From Nitrospirota bacterium (GTDB lineage: Bacteria; Nitrospirota; Thermodesulfovibrionia; UBA6902; DSMQ01), in the NCBI GenBank assembly GCA_016208965.1, contig JACQXB010000023.1, positions 95,474 to 159,473 on the forward strand: a stretch of 64,000 bases of DNA, in the 5' to 3' direction. Position 1 is the first letter of the stretch. Each line of letters begins with the position of its first letter. The position numbers and the translations under genes were made by a program. This document shows positions 36,946 through 44,339 of this stretch, in pieces. The notes under the pieces are model-generated. The model was not told the origin of the DNA. It was given only the letters and a program-made list of their open reading frames with translations, and did not search any database.

Positions 36946-37206
36946 TTATATTCTAACAAAATCTAAAACCCAATCAATTTCAATTATTCCACCGCGTCCA
37001 TTTCTATCGAATCTCATATAGCGATTTTTGATTTTGTAGCCCCACTTGTTGGTTATTCTAAAACCATTCCTTTCTGCAATTTCAGTCAAGAAGTTAGACG
37101 TATTAAAGGGAATGTTGCTTACGGAACTGTCGCCGACTACCATTATATAATGCCTGCCTTTGTCTAAGCATTTTGATATTTCCGCAAAGTGATCCAATAT
37201 GCTCAT
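36946..37206 (-). CDS. Small hypothetical protein, possibly the central remnant of a beta-class DNA methyltransferase
   Basis: 86 aa. LDKGRHYIMVVGDS and EIDWVLDFV resemble the blocks between motif IV and motif I of N4/N6 MTases, but neither DPPY nor FxGxG is present. Weak. Confidence 0.3.
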   Translation of the reverse strand: MSILDHFAEISKCLDKGRHYIMVVGDSSVSNIPFNTSNFLTEIAERNGFRITNKWGYKIKNRYMRFDRNGRGGIIEIDWVLDFVRI

Positions 37207-37212
37207 GAATAA

Positions 37213-38730
37213 TTACAAAGTCGCTTCATTTAATGTTGCTTTCGTCTCAAGACTGCTAACAAACTTCTCAATATCCGAAATTCTCACCTCTAAACCCTCT
37301 TTTTTAATAAAACTAAAGTAGCGTTCAGTATCAATAAAAGATTTTGGCGAAATAAACACGGAATATGATCTAGTCCCGTTTTTTACATACTCCTCAAGGT
37401 GTCGGTGTACCGAAAAGGATTCTCTAATGTGTTGTTGTGTTCCTGTTAGTAATGTAACTTCTACCAAAACAGTGTCTTGATCTTCTAAACATTCAATATC
37501 GGGACTTCCGCCAGAAGCAAAACTTGTTGGTAAGCCCTCGTCATCGGAAATAAAATTTGGTTTTACTACCACATTCGGTAATTTTTTGAGAATAGCCAAT
37601 GAAGTCAAAAATTCTAAGCGCAATGGTTGTTCTATAATTTTCAAGATATCATCATCTGAAGATTTTTTCCGTGCCAAATTAAGCATTTCAGCTTTAATTG
37701 ATTCCCATTCGTAATGTTTTACCCATTTTTCTAATTCTGCTTTTGTGGTTCTGACAGGCGATTTATAGACGGAAAGTGTTGCAATCAAATCAGTATCAAC
37801 TTTTCCGATATAATCAAAAAATTCTTTTTCTGTCTCAAACTCTTGGTAAGAAATATAATTTTTCAAAATATAATCTACGGTTGCTGTCTCTTTTGTATTT
37901 ATGTCTATAAAACGACTGCCCCCACGCAAAGAAAATAAACCAGTTAAACGCATTTTACGAATAAAATCATCGGGATAGTCTCCTAAAATGGAATTATCAT
38001 CTCTTTTCGTTTCGTTTAATAAGCTATAACAAAGTTCTAAAATTACTTCATTGCTTGGTGAATAGCCATATTTTTTGCGTAATTTCTTAATTTCACGATA
38101 TAGATTTTCAGCATTATCATTTTGCCAGCAAAGTAATAATGGAATTTCCAATCTTGAAATACCTGCGCCATTATAATCAGAATCATCATTCAAAAGTTTT
38201 ATTGTTTGTATCAGCAAGAGCAATGGCACATTTTTATTTAAAACTCTACGAAATGGGTTTTGTCGTTGGTATTTTGCAAAAGCATTAGCAAAAACCATTA
38301 ACTCATTTTCAGGTTTTTCTTTGTCCAGTAACATTTTTCCACTTTCAGAAAACTTTATTTCTTCATTTGCCCAATACCAAACAAACCCAAGCTCTTTGGC
38401 AATTTTAAACCAAGTATCAAATCTTGAAGGCCAACCTTTTTCAAACCCTGCTTCTTTATGGCTTTGCGGGTTACCGGAAAATACTTTTTCCGTTTCCGTT
38501 TCGCTTAATTCAATTTCATTTTTCCATTTATCTTTAATGGCAGGTGATACTTTCATCGGTTGGTATAATCCCTTTTGGATTAAAGTTTTAGCCACCTTAT
38601 TAATAAGTTCGTTTGTTAAGATTTCGCCATCGTATTCGCTGAGAACCAGTAGAAAATCTTTTAATCTTTCTGGATTTCTCATCGTTGTTGTAAACAGTAA
38701 TGGCTTGTATTCAGCTTGTCGTTTATTCAT
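37213..38730 (-). CDS. Type IIS restriction (or nicking) endonuclease, AlwI/BstNBI/MlyI/PleI-like
   Basis: TTTMRNPERLKDFL N-terminus, RLTGLFSLRG, and catalytic block GGSPDIECLEDQDTVLVEVTLLTGTQQHIRESFSVHRH. From memory these resemble N.BstNBI (PDMEIIYEDFIVLGEVT...Q...ES..V.RH). Adjacent to two m6A MTases. Confidence 0.62.
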   Translation of the reverse strand: MNKRQAEYKPLLFTTTMRNPERLKDFLLVLSEYDGEILTNELINKVAKTLIQKGLYQPMKVSPAIKDKWKNEIELSETETEKVFSGNPQSHKEAGFEKGWPSRFDTWFKIAKELGFVWYWANEEIKFSESGKMLLDKEKPENELMVFANAFAKYQRQNPFRRVLNKNVPLLLLIQTIKLLNDDSDYNGAGISRLEIPLLLCWQNDNAENLYREIKKLRKKYGYSPSNEVILELCYSLLNETKRDDNSILGDYPDDFIRKMRLTGLFSLRGGSRFIDINTKETATVDYILKNYISYQEFETEKEFFDYIGKVDTDLIATLSVYKSPVRTTKAELEKWVKHYEWESIKAEMLNLARKKSSDDDILKIIEQPLRLEFLTSLAILKKLPNVVVKPNFISDDEGLPTSFASGGSPDIECLEDQDTVLVEVTLLTGTQQHIRESFSVHRHLEEYVKNGTRSYSVFISPKSFIDTERYFSFIKKEGLEVRISDIEKFVSSLETKATLNEATL

Positions 38731-38734
38731 AGGT

Positions 38735-39640
38735 TTAATAGTTAGTGATCAAAACTTCTTTAATCACTTTTTTACCGTTATTGTGATAATTGATGTAATT
38801 GCTTTCTATTTTGTGCACTGTATATTTTTTCATCCATACTATCAATAAATCGTTTTTACTTCCGTTGTAGTGAGTGACATTTGATAAAGCAAATTTAACT
38901 CCCTTTTTGTCTAAATCAGCCACTATTTTTAATAAGTTCGATTCTGATTTTTCGCCCCAAAGTTTATTGTATTCACTTGCTGTTATTAGATATGGCGGAT
39001 CTAAATATACAAAATCATTTTTAAGATATTTTTTATCGGAAAAGAATTTATTAAAATCTTTTGAAGTTATAGATATTTTTTTATCGTGTACAAAATCAAA
39101 ATAGTCATTCAAGGCATTAACTACATTTTTATTAAAGTCCACATTTCCGACAGGAAGATTGAATTTTCCGCTACCATTAAATCTTAACATTCTATTGAAA
39201 CCATATATTAGTAATATGTATAAAATTAGAGGATCATTTTTTTTGTAATTATTAACGCACATCCTTAATTTTTCATAACCACCCTTGTTGAATCTTGCAT
39301 AATAGGTCTTTTTAAACTCCTTTTTCAAATAATCTGGAACAATATCTCTTTTATACGAATGAGATAACTTGTATTTATGAATAATTTTTTCAACACCTTT
39401 AAAAAACTTTTCGGGATTTTTTGCGCTGGCAATCAAAATTTTGTGTATATTTACAAGATGTTTATCTATATCGTTTAGAAAATATTTTTTTGCCTCAATG
39501 TTTAAAAATACTGTGCCTCCACCAAAAAAAGGTTCGTAAAAGTTATTTATTTCTTTTGGAAATAAATTTACCAATTGCTTCATTAATTTGTATTTATCCC
39601 CGACATAAAACAAAGGAGATCTTCTTATTTTATTGCTCAT
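38735..39640 (-). CDS. D12-class (Dam-family) N6-adenine DNA methyltransferase
   Basis: YVGDKYKL, FEPFFGGGTV (motif I) and YLDPPY (motif IV). Confidence 0.85.
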   Translation of the reverse strand: MSNKIRRSPLFYVGDKYKLMKQLVNLFPKEINNFYEPFFGGGTVFLNIEAKKYFLNDIDKHLVNIHKILIASAKNPEKFFKGVEKIIHKYKLSHSYKRDIVPDYLKKEFKKTYYARFNKGGYEKLRMCVNNYKKNDPLILYILLIYGFNRMLRFNGSGKFNLPVGNVDFNKNVVNALNDYFDFVHDKKISITSKDFNKFFSDKKYLKNDFVYLDPPYLITASEYNKLWGEKSESNLLKIVADLDKKGVKFALSNVTHYNGSKNDLLIVWMKKYTVHKIESNYINYHNNGKKVIKEVLITNY

Positions 39641-41445
39641 GTTTTTGCCTTGGTTACAAACAGGTATTCTTTGTGATTGTTGAAATTAGTATTGCCTGCG
39701 TTAAAATGCCTGTAATTTTTTTCAAAAACCTTAGTTGATCCTTTTGTCTGTAGAATTTTTTCTATTTCTTGAAGCGTAATCTTGTTGCGCGATGAGTTAC
39801 TTTTCGAATCGTAGGTATTATTATATGAAATAACTAGATATTGAGCGTCGAGGTCTCGCACAAGCTCTGCGAATTTATCCTTGGCGTTATTTCGGCAATA
39901 ATCGCTCATATTTTCTGGCTCCGGCTTTAGTGCAACGCCATAAAGTTTTGGTTTATCCCATTTAGTCAATGTTTCAAGCACATGATAAAATCTGCTGTAT
40001 TGTCTAGAATTGTAAGGTGGATCAATATACGCCACATCCACCTTTATTTTTTTAGCCAAAATATTTGCGTCCTCTTGAAAAATAGATATTTCTTGAACAT
40101 TAATCGGATCAATTGGTTTCATGAAAAAACTATCGTTTGTAAGTTCTTTCTTGAAATAGGCGTCGAAATGTCCAACTGTGTTAGCAATTTTATCAGCAGT
40201 ATAGAGTAGTGAAGCAATTAACATGTAATATTCTCTTTCAGTTAAATTGTTTTTATTTTTTTCAATATTTTCTCTGATAAAACCGATAATTTTTGCTGAA
40301 TTGCTGCTAAAAAATTTACCGCCAAACTTTTTGGAAAAATAATTTTCATCTAAATCATCGCTGTAAATATTATTATAGCTTTTAATAATGTTATCTATTT
40401 TATTTTTATCCCATACTTCATTACCAAAGAAAGCGCGATATATTGCGTAATTAGAATGCAAAAAATCATTTAATAATACATGGTTAAAATGTTTTGTCGC
40501 TACGGCAGAAACAACGCCAGTTCCTGCAAAAATATCAGCGAAAAAATCTCCACTGCATTCTTTGTTAATTATAGAAAAAATCCATTCAAGTAGTTTGTGT
40601 TTGTTTCCAATGTATCTGCGATTATGTAATTGGATATGATTTTTTTTTACTTGCGGAATGTAGAAATAATTCTCTTGGATTTTTTCGGCGGTTATTTCAT
40701 ACGCTGGTTTTTCAGCTTCAAACATTGCAAAAAGTGTTCCTTGTATTCCGTCAGCGATATAATCAAAACCCTCTTTTTGCTTTTTTAGTTTTTCATAAAA
40801 ACTATAATGATTATTTTCAGAGACAATAATGAAATCAACAACAGGTATCCCCATTATTTCTCCCGCTTGAACTATTTTTTCGACAATTTGATTATCTTTT
40901 TCGCTTGGCGAAGAATCACCCGATGGGTGGTTATGAATTAAAATAACACTAGCGGCATTTAATTCTGTCGCTGGATAAAAAATTTCTCTTGGATGGAGCA
41001 GTGCTTTATCCAACAAACCTACGCTAATAATTTCCTTTTTGAGCAGGGAATTTCTCGCGTTAAGATACAAACAAACTAAATGTTCTTTTTTCTTGTCTCT
41101 TAAGTCATAAGTGAGTGATAGAACATCTTGAGAATTTTTAATAATAATCTCGTTTGATTTTTCGTCCGCATAGAATCTTTTTACTAAAGAAATTGCAGAA
41201 GCAATTTGTAAGGCTTTAGCTTGACCAATCCCTGAAATTTCTACTAGATCATCAACAGTAATATTTAAAAAGTTTTTACCAAATTTTTTGATAATATTCT
41301 CTGAAAGTTGCCTGACATTTTTTCCCTTTATACCACTGCCTAAAAGAATCGCCAAAAGATCACTTTTGGAAAGTGCATCAGCTCCTTTTTGAAGAAATTT
41401 TTCTCTTGGGCGATCTATTTTGGGTATGTCCTTAATTTTTGGCAT
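39637..41445 (-). CDS. Fusion protein: RadC-like HhH+JAB domain (aa 1-225) plus D12-class N6-adenine DNA methyltransferase (aa 270-602)
   Basis: N-terminal half reads RPREKFL..G...LSKSDLLAILLGSG, HhH GIGQAKA and JAB ILIHNHPSGDSSPSEKD. C-terminal half reads RYIGNKHKLL, FADIFAGTG and YIDPPYNSRQY. Confidence 0.85.
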   Translation of the reverse strand: MPKIKDIPKIDRPREKFLQKGADALSKSDLLAILLGSGIKGKNVRQLSENIIKKFGKNFLNITVDDLVEISGIGQAKALQIASAISLVKRFYADEKSNEIIIKNSQDVLSLTYDLRDKKKEHLVCLYLNARNSLLKKEIISVGLLDKALLHPREIFYPATELNAASVILIHNHPSGDSSPSEKDNQIVEKIVQAGEIMGIPVVDFIIVSENNHYSFYEKLKKQKEGFDYIADGIQGTLFAMFEAEKPAYEITAEKIQENYFYIPQVKKNHIQLHNRRYIGNKHKLLEWIFSIINKECSGDFFADIFAGTGVVSAVATKHFNHVLLNDFLHSNYAIYRAFFGNEVWDKNKIDNIIKSYNNIYSDDLDENYFSKKFGGKFFSSNSAKIIGFIRENIEKNKNNLTEREYYMLIASLLYTADKIANTVGHFDAYFKKELTNDSFFMKPIDPINVQEISIFQEDANILAKKIKVDVAYIDPPYNSRQYSRFYHVLETLTKWDKPKLYGVALKPEPENMSDYCRNNAKDKFAELVRDLDAQYLVISYNNTYDSKSNSSRNKITLQEIEKILQTKGSTKVFEKNYRHFNAGNTNFNNHKEYLFVTKAKT

Positions 41446-41572
41446 AAATTATGTTTTAAGTAGTGATATTATATCCTATGTTCCTATCTGCACTGTTATG
41501 TTGCGATAAGTTTAATTTGTTCTCGCTCAATATTCAATTATAGTCGTTGTTTAAATAATCCCTCATTATAGG

Positions 41573-42874
41573 TTATCCCTTTTGCTCTTTCTTCCCTTTT
41601 GGCATGAATCGTTCCAAAAAAGAATTCGCTGGTGTTTCATCCGAAGTTTTTCTTTCAAATACTCGTAATGGAGTTTCAGATAAAATAGAAATTGTTCTAT
41701 CACATAAACGAGGAAGTGCTACTTCTGGGTCAACTTCTTGCATCTGTTTTTTATAACCTTCGAATGCTCTTGAAATTGATTCTTTAAATGCATAATCCTC
41801 TTCAAGACGAATTTTATGACCATAATTTCTTTCAAAAAACCATCCTAACCATATTAAAGGAAACGTCAAAGGGACTCGCTGCAAAAGATATGCCCACCAT
41901 TCAACTTTTCCAATATGCTCTGTAAAAGCATATATAATCCAACTTACCATTAGAACTAGAAAAATAAGACTACCTACAAACCCTACTACCCAATACTTTT
42001 TAGATTTAGTGATATCTTCTTTTCGTTGCCTGAATGAACTTGCTAATCCTGCGCTTGTCGCGCCAGGGAGCAAATCTTCAACCCTTTTTAGAGTATTGTC
42101 GGTATTCTCAATAAGCAAGTTTAATTTCTTTTCTCGTTCAGTTAAATCTTCTTTAATTTTTTCCGATTTTTCAGACAGTTCTTTTATTTCCTTTGCCCAG
42201 TTATCAACTTTTCCTTTTAAAGTTTCCATTGTTGAAGATAACTCTTTAGCGCCTTTTTCAGTTTGCTGAATTGCCGAAAGAATCTGTGTAGCTTTTTGGT
42301 TAATTTCTGCTGACTGGGTCAAGTTATCATTTATTTTCTTTGCGTTTTCATCAGAGGATGTTGTAATTGATTGAAGTTTTTCTGTGGTCTTTTCGACTTC
42401 TCCTAGAAAAATTTCAAGCTTATTTTTAAGATTTAACCCGCCTTCAAGGTCATTTTTGATCCTCTTAATTTCCACGTCCTGAATTTTTAATTGGTTTAGT
42501 TTCGTTTGATAGCCTAAAACCTCCTCGGAAAGATTATGAAATCCAAATTGCCAAATTGCGGTGTTGAGTTGTTCAATTGTATCGGTAAGATTTGTTATCT
42601 GGTCTGTTCCACCAGTAAGTCCGACCAAATACTTAGAAATTGCCTCAAGATTATTAAATAAAGTTTTCTGCACAGTAATTGGAAGTTGTATTAATTTTTT
42701 CTTCTCTATAGCATCTACAAGAATAAATTTGGCTGTGTTAAGATTTATAAAAGATTCATCAAGGGGAACAATACCGCGACTGGTGTCAAAACCAAGCTCT
42801 TTACATTTTGCAAATGCTGCGTTCTGTGCCTCCTCTGTAAAAGTAGTTAATATTTCCCATATTTTGTCTATCAT
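41573..42874 (-). CDS. Hypothetical coiled-coil protein with a C-terminal 2-TM hairpin
   Basis: Start taken at ATG 42874 (MIDKIWEIL), 7 nt after GGAGG. About 280 aa of heptad-rich sequence, then LLPGATSAGLASSFRQRK, two TM helices and YAFKESISRAFEGYKKQ. No family recognised. Confidence 0.6.
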   Translation of the reverse strand: MIDKIWEILTTFTEEAQNAAFAKCKELGFDTSRGIVPLDESFINLNTAKFILVDAIEKKKLIQLPITVQKTLFNNLEAISKYLVGLTGGTDQITNLTDTIEQLNTAIWQFGFHNLSEEVLGYQTKLNQLKIQDVEIKRIKNDLEGGLNLKNKLEIFLGEVEKTTEKLQSITTSSDENAKKINDNLTQSAEINQKATQILSAIQQTEKGAKELSSTMETLKGKVDNWAKEIKELSEKSEKIKEDLTEREKKLNLLIENTDNTLKRVEDLLPGATSAGLASSFRQRKEDITKSKKYWVVGFVGSLIFLVLMVSWIIYAFTEHIGKVEWWAYLLQRVPLTFPLIWLGWFFERNYGHKIRLEEDYAFKESISRAFEGYKKQMQEVDPEVALPRLCDRTISILSETPLRVFERKTSDETPANSFLERFMPKGKKEQKG

Positions 42875-42970
42875 ATTAATACCTCCTCTCTGCACTTACT
42901 AAAATCTACTTTTCCTTCCTCACCCCTTTAAACAGCTCCTCATCCGCCTTCTGATGAATAACTTTACCTT

Positions 42971-43330
42971 CTATTCCCAAAACTCGCTCAATCCCAGGCT
43001 TATTGCTATAGCCTTGTCAACCTCTTTAATCTTGTGTTCGGGAAGCGCTCCAACAAAATTCTCGAGTCTCTCTTTATCAATGGTATATATCTGCCCAAGA
43101 TGTACAACAGATTCATGGGGCAGTCCGCTTTCTTTTGGTTTTATTAATACGCCTACCGGCAATTCAGCAACTTTGAGGTTGCTTGTTATGGCAGCAACAA
43201 TTGTCAACCTCCCGACTTTATTACCTATGTCGTTTTGAATAACAAGTGCCGGATGAGGCCCTTTCATTTCCCTGCCCTTTGAAGGACTAAAGTCAAGAAA
43301 ATATATTTCACCACGCTTAGGCTGTTTCAT
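42971..43330 (-). CDS. mazF: Type II toxin, MazF/PemK family endoribonuclease
   Basis: RGEIYFLDFSPSKGREMKGPHPALVIQND...TIVAAITSN pattern. Confidence 0.88.
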   Translation of the reverse strand: MKQPKRGEIYFLDFSPSKGREMKGPHPALVIQNDIGNKVGRLTIVAAITSNLKVAELPVGVLIKPKESGLPHESVVHLGQIYTIDKERLENFVGALPEHKIKEVDKAIAISLGLSEFWE

Positions 43331-43602
43331 TTCCTCTTTGCCTTTCTGCCGGCTTTATATGTTGCAACAGGCTCTGCACAAATACTCAAAAAGTCTTCTG
43401 AAAGGCGCTTATCGTCATCTGCGATTTCCTTATAGATTCTTTCTGCTTTTTCAATAGCCTGCTGCTTCTTGTAATCACTAATCATTTTTGTAATAGCCTC
43501 TCTGACAATTTCGCTTCTGTTCTTTTTTAATCCCTTTGAAATCCTGTCTATCTCTTCAACAAGTTCTGCGGGAAAGCTTATCCCAAGTTTTACAACCGGC
43601 AT
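43327..43602 (-). CDS. RHH (CopG/MazE-like) antitoxin
   Basis: MPVVKLGISFPAELVEEIDRISK...NRSEIVREAI ribbon-helix-helix. AAGGAGG RBS before ATG 43602, and a stop overlapping the mazF start. Confidence 0.75.
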   Translation of the reverse strand: MPVVKLGISFPAELVEEIDRISKGLKKNRSEIVREAITKMISDYKKQQAIEKAERIYKEIADDDKRLSEDFLSICAEPVATYKAGRKAKRK

Positions 43603-43712
43603 TTTTACCTCCTTGAAATACCATATTCTACAAATTAGAATACCACAAAGAATACCATAATTCAAACTTAGATTTTTATATGCAAAGATTTACGGTGCAT
43701 TCTTAGCCATAT

Positions 43713-44339
43713 TCAAACCTCCAAATTTGGAATTGTTGTTACAGCTACCCCCTGAACCTGAAAATTTTCAGTCAGGATAATCGGCTTATGATTTTTATTA
43801 CTTGACCTCGGCATTAGAACAACACAATTTTTACTATGTTGAAACTCTTTCACAGTTGCTTCATCATCAATCATCGCTACAACTATATCCCCATTTTGTG
43901 CCGATGACTGCTGGCGGACAAGTATTAAATCTCCATCATTGATTCCAGCTTTGTTCATAGAATCACCTTTAGCCCTAAGCAAGAAGTATTTAAACCCTGG
44001 TTTTGCAAGGGAAACGGATACAGGAATATATCCTTCAATATTCTCCTGAGCTAAAATAGGCAAACCACAGGACGCCATACCAACTAAAGGAACATCTACT
44101 GTGCGGGCATGAACTGAATCCGAGTCAAGAACTTTAATTAATTGCAAATCTCCATTTGAACGTTTTCTCAAAATACCTTTCTGAATTAATTCCTCAATAA
44201 TTAAAGCAGCTGAACGAGGGGATTTATATCCAAGCTCTGTCATCAACTCACGCACAGATGGGGTTTTTCCCTTATGCATAAGCCAGTTTCGTATACAGCG
44301 GACTGCATCTGCTTGTTTTTGACTGAGTTGTATCTTCAT
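43713..44339 (-). CDS. lexA: LexA-family repressor (wHTH plus S24 peptidase)
   Basis: N-terminal PSVRELMTELGYKSPRSA wHTH, VPLVGMASCGLP cleavage region, GDSM serine and a conserved K (ATVKEF). Confidence 0.82.
   Translation of the reverse strand: MKIQLSQKQADAVRCIRNWLMHKGKTPSVRELMTELGYKSPRSAALIIEELIQKGILRKRSNGDLQLIKVLDSDSVHARTVDVPLVGMASCGLPILAQENIEGYIPVSVSLAKPGFKYFLLRAKGDSMNKAGINDGDLILVRQQSSAQNGDIVVAMIDDEATVKEFQHSKNCVVLMPRSSNKNHKPIILTENFQVQGVAVTTIPNLEV

Follow-up and report, generated by a model that had tools for sequence, protein, structure and literature searches.

A RadC head on the first methyltransferase of an AlwI-family restriction-modification operon: a portable accessory module with a conserved linker motif

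Introduction

The closest described relatives of the locus considered here are the type IIS restriction-modification (RM) systems of the AlwI/BspD6I family. The locus is a three-gene RM cassette on a 64,000-nucleotide stretch of a Nitrospirota contig (JACQXB010000023.1; the window, meaning the whole stretch), whose first gene codes for a RadC protein fused to a DNA methyltransferase (MTase). The described systems have the same components in the same order, namely a D12-class MTase (M1; homologues at ~52-54% identity), a Dam-family MTase (M2) and an AlwI-family endonuclease (R). Cassettes of M1, M2 and R that lack RadC are annotated on plasmids of Lactococcus, Enterococcus, Staphylococcus and Macrococcoides, examples being the Lactococcus lactis plasmid NZ_CP065734.1 and Macrococcoides caseolyticum pMCCL2. 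The M1 of these AlwI-type plasmids carries an unrelated leader of ~80 aa instead of RadC, and the plasmid R has ~590 aa versus 505 aa in the window.

RadC ranks with the most widespread of the bacterial proteins that lack an assigned function; the mutation behind its name was mis-mapped, and a 2025 review still describes its activity as undefined. The head of the window protein matches stand-alone RadC/YicR (PF04002, TIGR00608; structure 2QLC) over its full length, with both the helix-hairpin-helix (HhH) and the JAB domain intact. Unlike the ~220-aa stand-alone protein, the window protein has 602 aa, is joined to an MTase and bears a Y..DG.QxxLF extension that is absent from 28 solo RadCs; fused heads, again unlike stand-alone RadC, form tight clades exchanged among RM systems. 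Catalogued fusion partners of RadC, as far as the cited parts of these papers go, are HhH, ArdC, DnaG primase and DinG/Rad3 helicase (Iyer et al. 2011, PMC3239186; 2017, PMC5512222; PMC11981726). The likeness to the present case lies in the N-terminal position of RadC on DNA-handling enzymes of mobile or conflict systems and in a function read from context. The same parts mention no MTase partner or RM operon, however, and the fusions they describe mostly involve an HhH-less RadC on conjugative elements, whereas the window head is a full housekeeping-type RadC with its HhH.

Taken as an RM system, the cassette is an ordinary one of the AlwI family; its RadC head is a novel, recurrent accessory module. 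In agreement with a sequence-only reading of this DNA, which knew of no characterised example, the literature searched describes no RadC-MTase fusion, REBASE-type entry or RadC-DnaN link, though the bare architecture may be listed uncharacterised in InterPro or REBASE. The fusions carry database labels such as 'DNA repair protein RadC' or 'adenine-specific DNA-methyltransferase', and RM surveys of candidate-phyla genomes therefore mislabel them. The evidence below makes it highly probable that the head, together with a conserved linker motif, is a real, portable and selected accessory of RM MTases.

Results

The RadC::M1 gene occupies positions 39637..41445 of the window and is the first gene of the operon, all features of which lie on the minus strand. 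The list of open reading frames (ORFs), Pfam, NCBIfam and contig comparison define it as one frame of 602 aa with an ATG start and no interruption. The sequence-only reading had seen this uninterrupted frame and had described a complete RadC followed by a complete D12 MTase. Both descriptions hold: Pfam recognises UPF0758_N, RadC JAB and MethyltransfD12, the score for the NCBIfam RadC equivalog PRK00024 (217.4 bits) exceeds the cut-off of 180, and every motif quoted in that reading was found again at its coordinates. Its further statements that RadC normally stands alone and that a linker of about 45 aa follows the head are matched by solo RadCs, which typically end 10-20 aa after the JAB domain, and by a measured linker of 48 aa.

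The head begins with the RadC N-terminal domain UPF0758_N (41152..41436; PF20582, 80.7 bits, aa 4-78), predicted by AlphaFold2 (AF2) with a per-residue confidence (pLDDT) of 85-93. It includes the HhH sequence GIGQAKA (aa 72-78, 41212-41232) and is presumed to bind DNA non-specifically; its fold matches the HhH domain of Hef (1X2I) weakly (Foldseek E 0.24, TMt 0.56). The RadC JAB/MPN+ domain follows (40780..41151; PF04002, 127.8 bits, aa 102-219), with its metal site made up of E154 (40984-40986) and HNHPSGDSSPSEKD (aa 171-184, 40894-40935). The layout E...HxH...S..D is intact (E154, H171, H173, S181, D184); when fused and solo RadCs are aligned, H171, H173, S181 and D184 are invariant and E154 is present in at least 90%, being invariant among the fusions. 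In the structure prediction suggested at the outset the head is confidently folded, and its JAB domain superposes on the RadC structure 2QLC with a template-modelling (TM) score of 0.89-0.90 and a root-mean-square deviation of 1.7 Å (sequence match E=1e-25). The next structural neighbours of the predicted head, after RadC itself, are JAMM isopeptidases.

The linker (aa 223-270, 40636..40779) is predicted to be flexible and unstructured, with low AF2 pLDDT and no regular secondary structure. The body, M1 (39640..40635), is a D12-class N6-adenine MTase with the alpha-type order of motifs, identified by Pfam (PF02086, aa 278-531, 122.7 bits) and by PADLOC (MTase_II, 413 bits). Its motifs are RRYIGNKHKLL (aa 276-286), FAGTG (aa 306-310, 40516-40530) and DPPY (aa 475-478, 40012-40023), the latter two invariant in the alignment of the fusion family. 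The AF2 model of the full-length fusion is poor overall (pLDDT 58).

The fusion is also physically real. Contigs from four separate groundwater metagenome runs span positions 39500-41600 at 10-15x depth with 0 differences and 0 gaps, a comparison made at the level of contigs rather than raw reads, and the hidden stop or frameshift for which the sequence-only reading advised a check is not there. The same uninterrupted architecture recurs in at least 120 protein clusters at 90% identity and in ~50 GTDB species representatives; 117 of the 120 listed clusters have lengths of 601-606 aa, and three have 543 aa. Long tblastn spans give the appearance of insertions within the gene in L030, L067 and L080; the L030 case is a run-on of tblastn into the homologous M2.

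When 1.84 billion representatives were scanned exhaustively and without profiles, and the matches followed up with Pfam and gene-context look-ups, a full-length RadC was found N-terminal to MTases of three families, D12 (PF02086), C5 (PF00145) and N6/N4 (PF01555), in at least eight RM configurations. In each locus with a readable downstream gene, the gene after the fusion is of restriction type, and seven nuclease or nuclease-associated families are represented. Besides RadC::D12 with the 505-aa RE_AlwI and a Dam-like M2 in the window, these configurations include a fusion with an RE_AlwI of ~605 aa and an N6_N4 M2 (L049, L056, L058, L062), fusions followed by R.HinP1I and Vsr (L074), by RE_HpaII and Vsr (P0134), by RE_NgoFVII_C (P0211), by EcoRII-C (P0179, from Armatimonadota) and by MTaX1 (P0138), and a RadC::C5::D12 triple fusion (L076). 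One further RadC::D12 protein (P0122) lies on a contig that stops short of an identifiable next gene. The family is concentrated in genomes labelled Patescibacteria, and in one such metagenome-assembled genome (MAG), JAHILZ01, two fusion genes occur along with part of a third (L052, L074, L064). The architecture is common in metagenomes, and the fusion of the window is not a rare one-off.

Several variants accompany this family. The M1 body is also found with other N-terminal additions, namely a helix-turn-helix (HTH) domain, HTH_3, in P0125 and P0131, a Peptidase_S24 (LexA-like, self-cleaving) domain ahead of two D12 domains in P0128, and an AAA_21 ATPase (seen among P0125, P0131, P0128 and P0173); the N-terminus of M1-type MTases is therefore a hotspot for accessory modules. 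The HhH N-domain of RadC occurs without JAB on D12 or C5 MTases in P0214, P0266, P0223, P0425, P0427 and P0463, some of which have a QxxLF-like motif and others none; several are contig-end fragments. Shortened ORFs consisting of RadC and an MTase stub of ~50 aa recur (P0340, P0350, P0382, L069). A DUF6119 protein (506-533 aa) stands after the cassette of RadC::D12-B, R and N6_N4 M2 in two loci (L049 10417-11937 and L056 6163-7764). At Sulfurimonas-type loci (L115-L118) a RadC of 250-264 aa opens a conserved block between tex and an acetyltransferase gene, followed by a PLD/NgoFVII-type nuclease (306 aa), an ORF of 103-108 aa and a 156-aa N6_N4 MTase fragment. This RadC belongs to the second of the head lineages described below (lineage B); close to the C-terminus, one representative (P0307) retains YIRQGAVQKSLFDF, exactly the segment that is missing from the related P0308 and P0309.

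Head and body have had separate histories. Domain-wise comparison finds heads 78-95% identical to that of the window on D12 bodies that are just 44-48% identical, and heads ~90% identical on D12-A, D12-B, C5 and C5+D12 bodies, with more distant heads on C5, D12 and N6/N4 MTases. The converse also occurs: L046, L047 and L061 have a body like that of the window (77-81%) with a JAB domain only 57-61% identical. The breakpoints of these swaps lie in the linker. Between swapped heads dS, the synonymous divergence, is 0.5-3, dN, the nonsynonymous divergence, is 0.02-0.06, and dN/dS is 0.02-0.06; the head is under strong purifying selection and is a constrained functional module. Recent copying is rejected as the source of the likeness between heads, since their synonymous sites have diverged to this extent. 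In a neighbour-joining tree the heads fall into at least two separate lineages, clade A and clade B (P0122/P0211, bootstrap 1.0), which share ~45% identity, the grouping of clade B being the only one resolved with support; each clade includes D12 and C5 bodies, and P0179 stands apart. One apparent solo RadC (P0133) was rejected as such, being a fragment of a fusion.

The linker holds a conserved motif, FDYIADGIQGTLFAMFE (aa 227-243, 40717..40767), whose core QGTLF (aa 235-239, 40729-40743) is a candidate binding motif for the beta sliding clamp. The consensus after the JAB domain, [FLVI]DY[VI]A[DE]G[IV]-Q-x-[TS]-L-F-[AD]-[LIM]-[LF]-E, is found in nearly all fusions, whatever the class of MTase, and is held even where heads share 41-46% identity; the C5 fusions read Q[ASVI]SLFDLL. 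Residues Q235, L238 and F239 are invariant in the aligned fusions, down to 41% identity. Of 147 fused proteins, a set dominated by one family, 141 have a strict QxxLF, versus none of 28 genuine solo RadCs. The bacterial clamp-binding pentapeptide has the consensus QL(S/D)LF, with acknowledged variability (PMC9690074), and QGTLF fits its Q-x-x-L-F pattern but departs from the consensus L at position 2. According to the AF2 models the motif lies in a disordered linker: it is coil at pLDDT 22-29 in the full-length model and has pLDDT ~50 in a model of head and linker built on a diverse alignment, where the head is folded at 85-95.

Motifs of this type are not confined to proteins with a RadC head. 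Among the RadC-less relatives of M1, L065 has the leader VADAGVQGTLFESLE, L071 has a Lys-rich leader followed by ETIQGFLFDI, L072 and L073 begin with MEIQRSFF, and P0189, P0152 and P0157 read MSAAQLALF, QLPLF and QRTLFD. RadC-less relatives of a RadC-fused C5 enzyme read MQGTLFDLL (P0426), MSYQLSLLL (P0430), QIPLF (P0472), QPELFDL (P0478) and QK[DN]LF (P0537 and P0542). In P0189, P0426 and L072/L073 the motif stands at the extreme N-terminus. Composition-preserving shuffles lead one to expect QxxLF in 0.23 leaders of each set; it is found in 3 of 29 D12 leaders (P=0.0004) and in 6 of 29 C5 leaders (P<0.0002), about four of the latter being independent, since one may be what is left of a RadC and two are near relatives of each other. 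Because the motif survives without RadC, it is better read as a short linear motif in the service of the MTase than as a structural element of RadC. Its predicted disorder and its presence in the unrelated leaders of RadC-less proteins likewise disfavour a docking helix for RadC or a cis-cleavage site of the JAB domain.

RadC::M1, M2 and R form a three-gene AlwI-family type IIS-like RM operon. M2 (38735..39640) is a Dam-family m6A MTase of 301 aa that matches T4 Dam (4e-39) and DpnM (1e-16), and its start overlaps the stop of M1 (ATGA). Four nucleotides separate it from R (37213..38730), a type II restriction endonuclease of 505 aa (RE_AlwI PF09491, 138 bits; PADLOC REase_II, 432 bits), the catalytic region of which matches both subunits of BspD6I. 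M1 and M2 presumably each modify a separate strand of an asymmetric site; in RadC-less cassettes of other MAGs the two occur fused (L072) or as separate genes (L068). Directly downstream of R, an 86-aa ORF (36946..37206) is the C-terminal fragment of another type II MTase, matching only the C-terminal 75 residues of the 438-aa PADLOC model PDLC03362; it accompanies the cassette in L001. The intergenic region upstream of the fusion (41446..41572) contains, on reading the sequence, a TATAAT-like box ~30 nt before the ATG, which is likely the promoter of the operon; a consensus scan for promoters and terminators did no better than on shuffled sequence.

The GC content drops from ~0.40 to 0.25-0.36 over ~35.2-42.9 kb of the window, RadC head included, and on account of this low GC relative to the host the cassette is a foreign, horizontally acquired island. 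The host genes in the window code for complex I, pyruvate:ferredoxin oxidoreductase (PFOR), acetyl-CoA synthetase and histidine kinases, and the isoleucyl-tRNA synthetase is 71-77% identical to those of groundwater Nitrospirae/Thermodesulfovibrionia MAGs; the host is not a Patescibacterium. Elsewhere the flanks of the same cassette are unrelated, and genes for an HTH controller and a DUF4357 protein often precede it. The sequences 5' of the fusion differ between the loci compared, with no conserved upstream element or att site among them, and there is no tRNA at 30-48 kb of the window; a fixed integration site marked by such features is accordingly rejected. No second radC was found in the window by tblastn, no phage or plasmid record covers at least 80% of the fusion protein, and no relative was found on a viral contig. 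The operon, the low-GC island and the QxxLF motif all go beyond the sequence-only reading, which had recognised the fusion and its parts.

The surroundings of the island were also inspected. Directly upstream of the cassette (41573-44339, minus strand) lies the gene of a 440-aa coiled-coil protein with predicted membrane segments, which has weak LmuB/ZorA/JetC-type coiled-coil hits only; the same region holds a toxin-antitoxin pair of MazF and ribbon-helix-helix type (42971-43665) and a LexA homologue (43713-44339). In L001 and L002, though not in the other genomes, both the gene of the 440-aa protein and the toxin-antitoxin pair go along with the cassette. In many genomes (L003-L008, L015, L017) the cassette is preceded by genes for a 68-aa HTH_3 protein resembling a controller protein and for a 282-aa DUF4357 protein, both of which are missing from the window. 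A Nitrospirae bacterium CG02 MAG (L063 5917-9892) has the same island in decayed form, with a nucleotide identity to the window of 97% over the head and the start of M1 and of 94% over part of R, and with ~2 kb of unrelated sequence in place of the remainder of M1, the whole of M2 and the start of R. In an analysis of k-mer avoidance aimed at the recognition site of the cassette, GATC is depleted 4-fold across the whole window (1-64000; 98 observed vs 392 expected, maximal-order Markov model, both strands), CCWGG (0.45) and GGWCC (0.56) are likewise depleted, and GGATC and GAGTC show no depletion beyond that of GATC. The depletion of GATC, CCWGG and GGWCC suggests long-term restriction pressure on the host lineage.

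Discussion

The best reading of the RadC head, though a tentative one, is that it serves as an accessory module by which methylation and the activity of RadC are localised to DNA that is being synthesised or is entering the cell. M1 has gained a portable N-terminal module, a complete RadC composed of an HhH and a JAB Zn-hydrolase with an intact metal site, joined to it through a disordered linker with the invariant QxxLF. Tethering to the clamp in particular, which the likeness of the motif to clamp-binding peptides brings to mind, is possible, if somewhat less assured than this reading as a whole. QxxLF, probably aided by the HhH, would tether the MTase to beta sliding clamps at sites of DNA synthesis, either replication forks or incoming DNA undergoing conversion to duplex. 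The tethered enzyme could then scan new, unprotected DNA one-dimensionally, so that modification would stay ahead of the endonuclease, while the head would add non-specific DNA binding through its HhH and would bring its Zn-dependent JAB activity to the same place. Two sets of published observations touch on this proposal. Transposases of many IS families bind the sliding clamp, according to the cited part of PMC4549789, and radC belongs to the core SigX competence regulon of streptococci together with dprA, ssbB and recA, which dpnA and dpnB join in DpnII strains (PMC5069739). The covalent RadC::MTase may be the fused form of a pair that is elsewhere just co-regulated. Among the functional options put forward in the sequence-only reading, targeting to incoming or replicating DNA is thus favoured by the clamp-type linker motif and by the co-regulation of radC with dpnA; the mechanism, that is, clamp binding, localisation, the benefit to the RM system and any substrate of the JAB domain, is still what we infer.

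A number of points weigh against clamp tethering. Hemimethylated DNA is normally already safe from restriction, and the benefit of coupling methylation to replication is not obvious. The clamp model leaves the strong selection on an enzymatically intact JAB domain unexplained. As for the motif, QxxLF is short, its position 2 is usually G where the consensus has L, the conserved block exceeds a minimal clamp motif in length (DYVADG precedes the Q), and two fused lineages have degenerate versions (QYGIS in P0138, QITLS in P0179); the low pLDDT of the linker owes something to shallow alignments. No dnaN was found among the ten large ORFs of the window that were scanned (the other ORFs were not scanned), and the literature searched reports no bacterial MTase-clamp interaction or clamp-binding motif in an MTase. 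In addition, relatives without any head or leader number 85 of 120 for the C5 body and 30 of 62 for the D12 body; as close relatives of both bodies are mostly headless, the head is an optional accessory.

An extended form of clamp tethering, which we consider unlikely at present, would make RadC itself a Zn hydrolase associated with both the clamp and DNA and acting on nascent or incoming DNA under methylation, with RM MTases, especially those of Patescibacteria, tethered through an N-terminal QxxLF. RadC might then, for example, clear stalled MTase-DNA complexes in the manner of SPRTN, and with the tethered MTases bacteria would have their own version of DNMT1-PCNA maintenance methylation.

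Patescibacteria rely on DNA uptake, and the fusion family is concentrated in genomes that carry this label. This bears on an alternative that overlaps with clamp tethering and differs from it in substrate, single-stranded DNA (ssDNA) at entry as opposed to replication forks. Here, in natural transformation or conjugation, the head would recognise incoming ssDNA or the machinery that processes it, and the fused MTase would methylate foreign DNA in advance, as DpnA does, so that the host or the mobile cassette could acquire DNA in spite of its own endonuclease. DpnA, an ssDNA methylase induced in competence, shields DNA on entry (PMC3573125); the SigX regulon mentioned above unites radC with dprA, ssbB and recA and, in DpnII strains, with dpnA and dpnB (PMC5069739); and RadC-like JAB proteins are, in the cited parts of the catalogues, fused to ArdC and DnaG and present on conjugative elements. 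Nevertheless, M1 is a D12 enzyme (PF02086) and not a homologue of DpnA (PF01555), the second MTase is already accounted for by an asymmetric site, methylation of ssDNA needs no clamp-type motif, and no relative was found among the phage, plasmid and viral records searched. A DpnA-like role is accordingly rated as improbable, though it is among the better of the alternatives.

The invariant metal ligands and the low dN/dS of the head (0.02-0.06) direct attention to the JAB domain, and they are the strength of an equally improbable alternative in which the enzyme activity of RadC is the central element. RadC would be a DNA-associated hydrolase, either a protease resembling SPRTN or Wss1 or a nucleic-acid-processing enzyme, that clears trapped MTase-DNA complexes or cuts the fusion or the endonuclease to set the balance of M to R, with the HhH and the motif merely positioning it. 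The combination of a DNA-binding domain, a Zn hydrolase and a clamp motif resembles the architecture of SPRTN, and C5 MTases form covalent intermediates with DNA; C5 bodies are the commonest partner in one inspected set of fused proteins, the nearest folds beyond RadC are JAMM isopeptidases, and P0128 joins the M1 body to S24, a further self-cleaving peptidase fold. Yet m6A and N6/N4 enzymes, which make no covalent adduct, bear the same head, HhH::MTase variants exist without JAB (P0214, P0266, P0427, P0463), and the persistence of the motif without RadC argues against its being a cis-cleavage site. In the cited part of their work, moreover, Iyer et al. argue that RadC is without the groove for a ubiquitin tail and favour a nucleic-acid substrate.

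Less probable still is the absence of any functional coupling, whereby RM cassettes land beside radC and a lost stop codon gives a harmless or expression-borrowing fusion while RadC remains a housekeeping protein. Loci of this kind can be pictured from the Sulfurimonas-type arrangement, in which a solo RadC stands directly ahead of a PLD/NgoFVII-type nuclease and an MTase fragment; shortened ORFs of RadC and a stub are common, and most relatives of the MTases do without the head. The head, however, enters a foreign host together with the cassette and is as low in GC as the rest of it, it is found on three MTase classes and in at least eight RM configurations, and one MAG has no fewer than two fusion genes besides part of a third. 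Fused heads have an extra motif that typical solo RadCs lack, no conserved sequence lies upstream of the fusion, and strong purifying selection continues after repeated swaps of the body. Finally, a sequencing or assembly artefact that joined two neighbouring genes through a missed stop or frameshift is ruled out for practical purposes at the level of contigs, because four independent assemblies are identical over 2.1 kb, the same open frame recurs across the clusters and species representatives, and the domains flanking the junction are under purifying selection.

The fusion, with its portable and selected head and its clamp-type motif, makes the long-standing question of the function of RadC directly testable. 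If the motif binds the clamp, this would be, to our knowledge, the first replisome-coupled DNA methylation in bacteria. Such coupling would add a new layer to selfish RM elements, by which modification is kept ahead of restriction after horizontal transfer. Should RadC also act as a hydrolase on DNA under methylation, the RadC::MTase fusions would show the role in the cell that has long been sought for the RadC family.

Beyond the AlwI-type cassettes and the RadC family, four kinds of known system invite comparison. Eukaryotic DNMT1 couples to PCNA through a PIP box. This coupling, and the clamp clients with QL[SD]LF, including IS transposases, as covered by the cited parts of PMC9690074 and PMC4549789, share with the fusion a Q-x-x-L-F-type motif in a disordered segment beside a DNA-modifying or mobile-element enzyme and the principle of a tether to freshly synthesised DNA, a likeness that is one of analogy only. 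The DpnII system (DpnM, DpnA and DpnB; PMC3573125) likewise has two MTases and dedicates one of them to a special state of DNA; M2 of the window is akin to DpnM, but M1, with PF02086 and not PF01555, is not a DpnA homologue. Controller-fused HTH::MTase proteins are represented by the same M1 body with an N-terminal HTH_3 (P0125, P0131), and there the fusion leads to transcriptional autoregulation, whereas RadC is an enzyme with a non-specific HhH, and many RadC cassettes have a separate HTH gene upstream. Type IIG/IIC enzymes, in which an N-terminal PD-(D/E)XK nuclease is fused to a gamma-class MTase with a TRD and serves as the endonuclease of the system, are not matched, since the N-terminal module of the fusion is JAB and not PD-(D/E)XK, its MTase is of the D12 class and, in the loci with a readable downstream gene, a separate restriction-type gene follows it.

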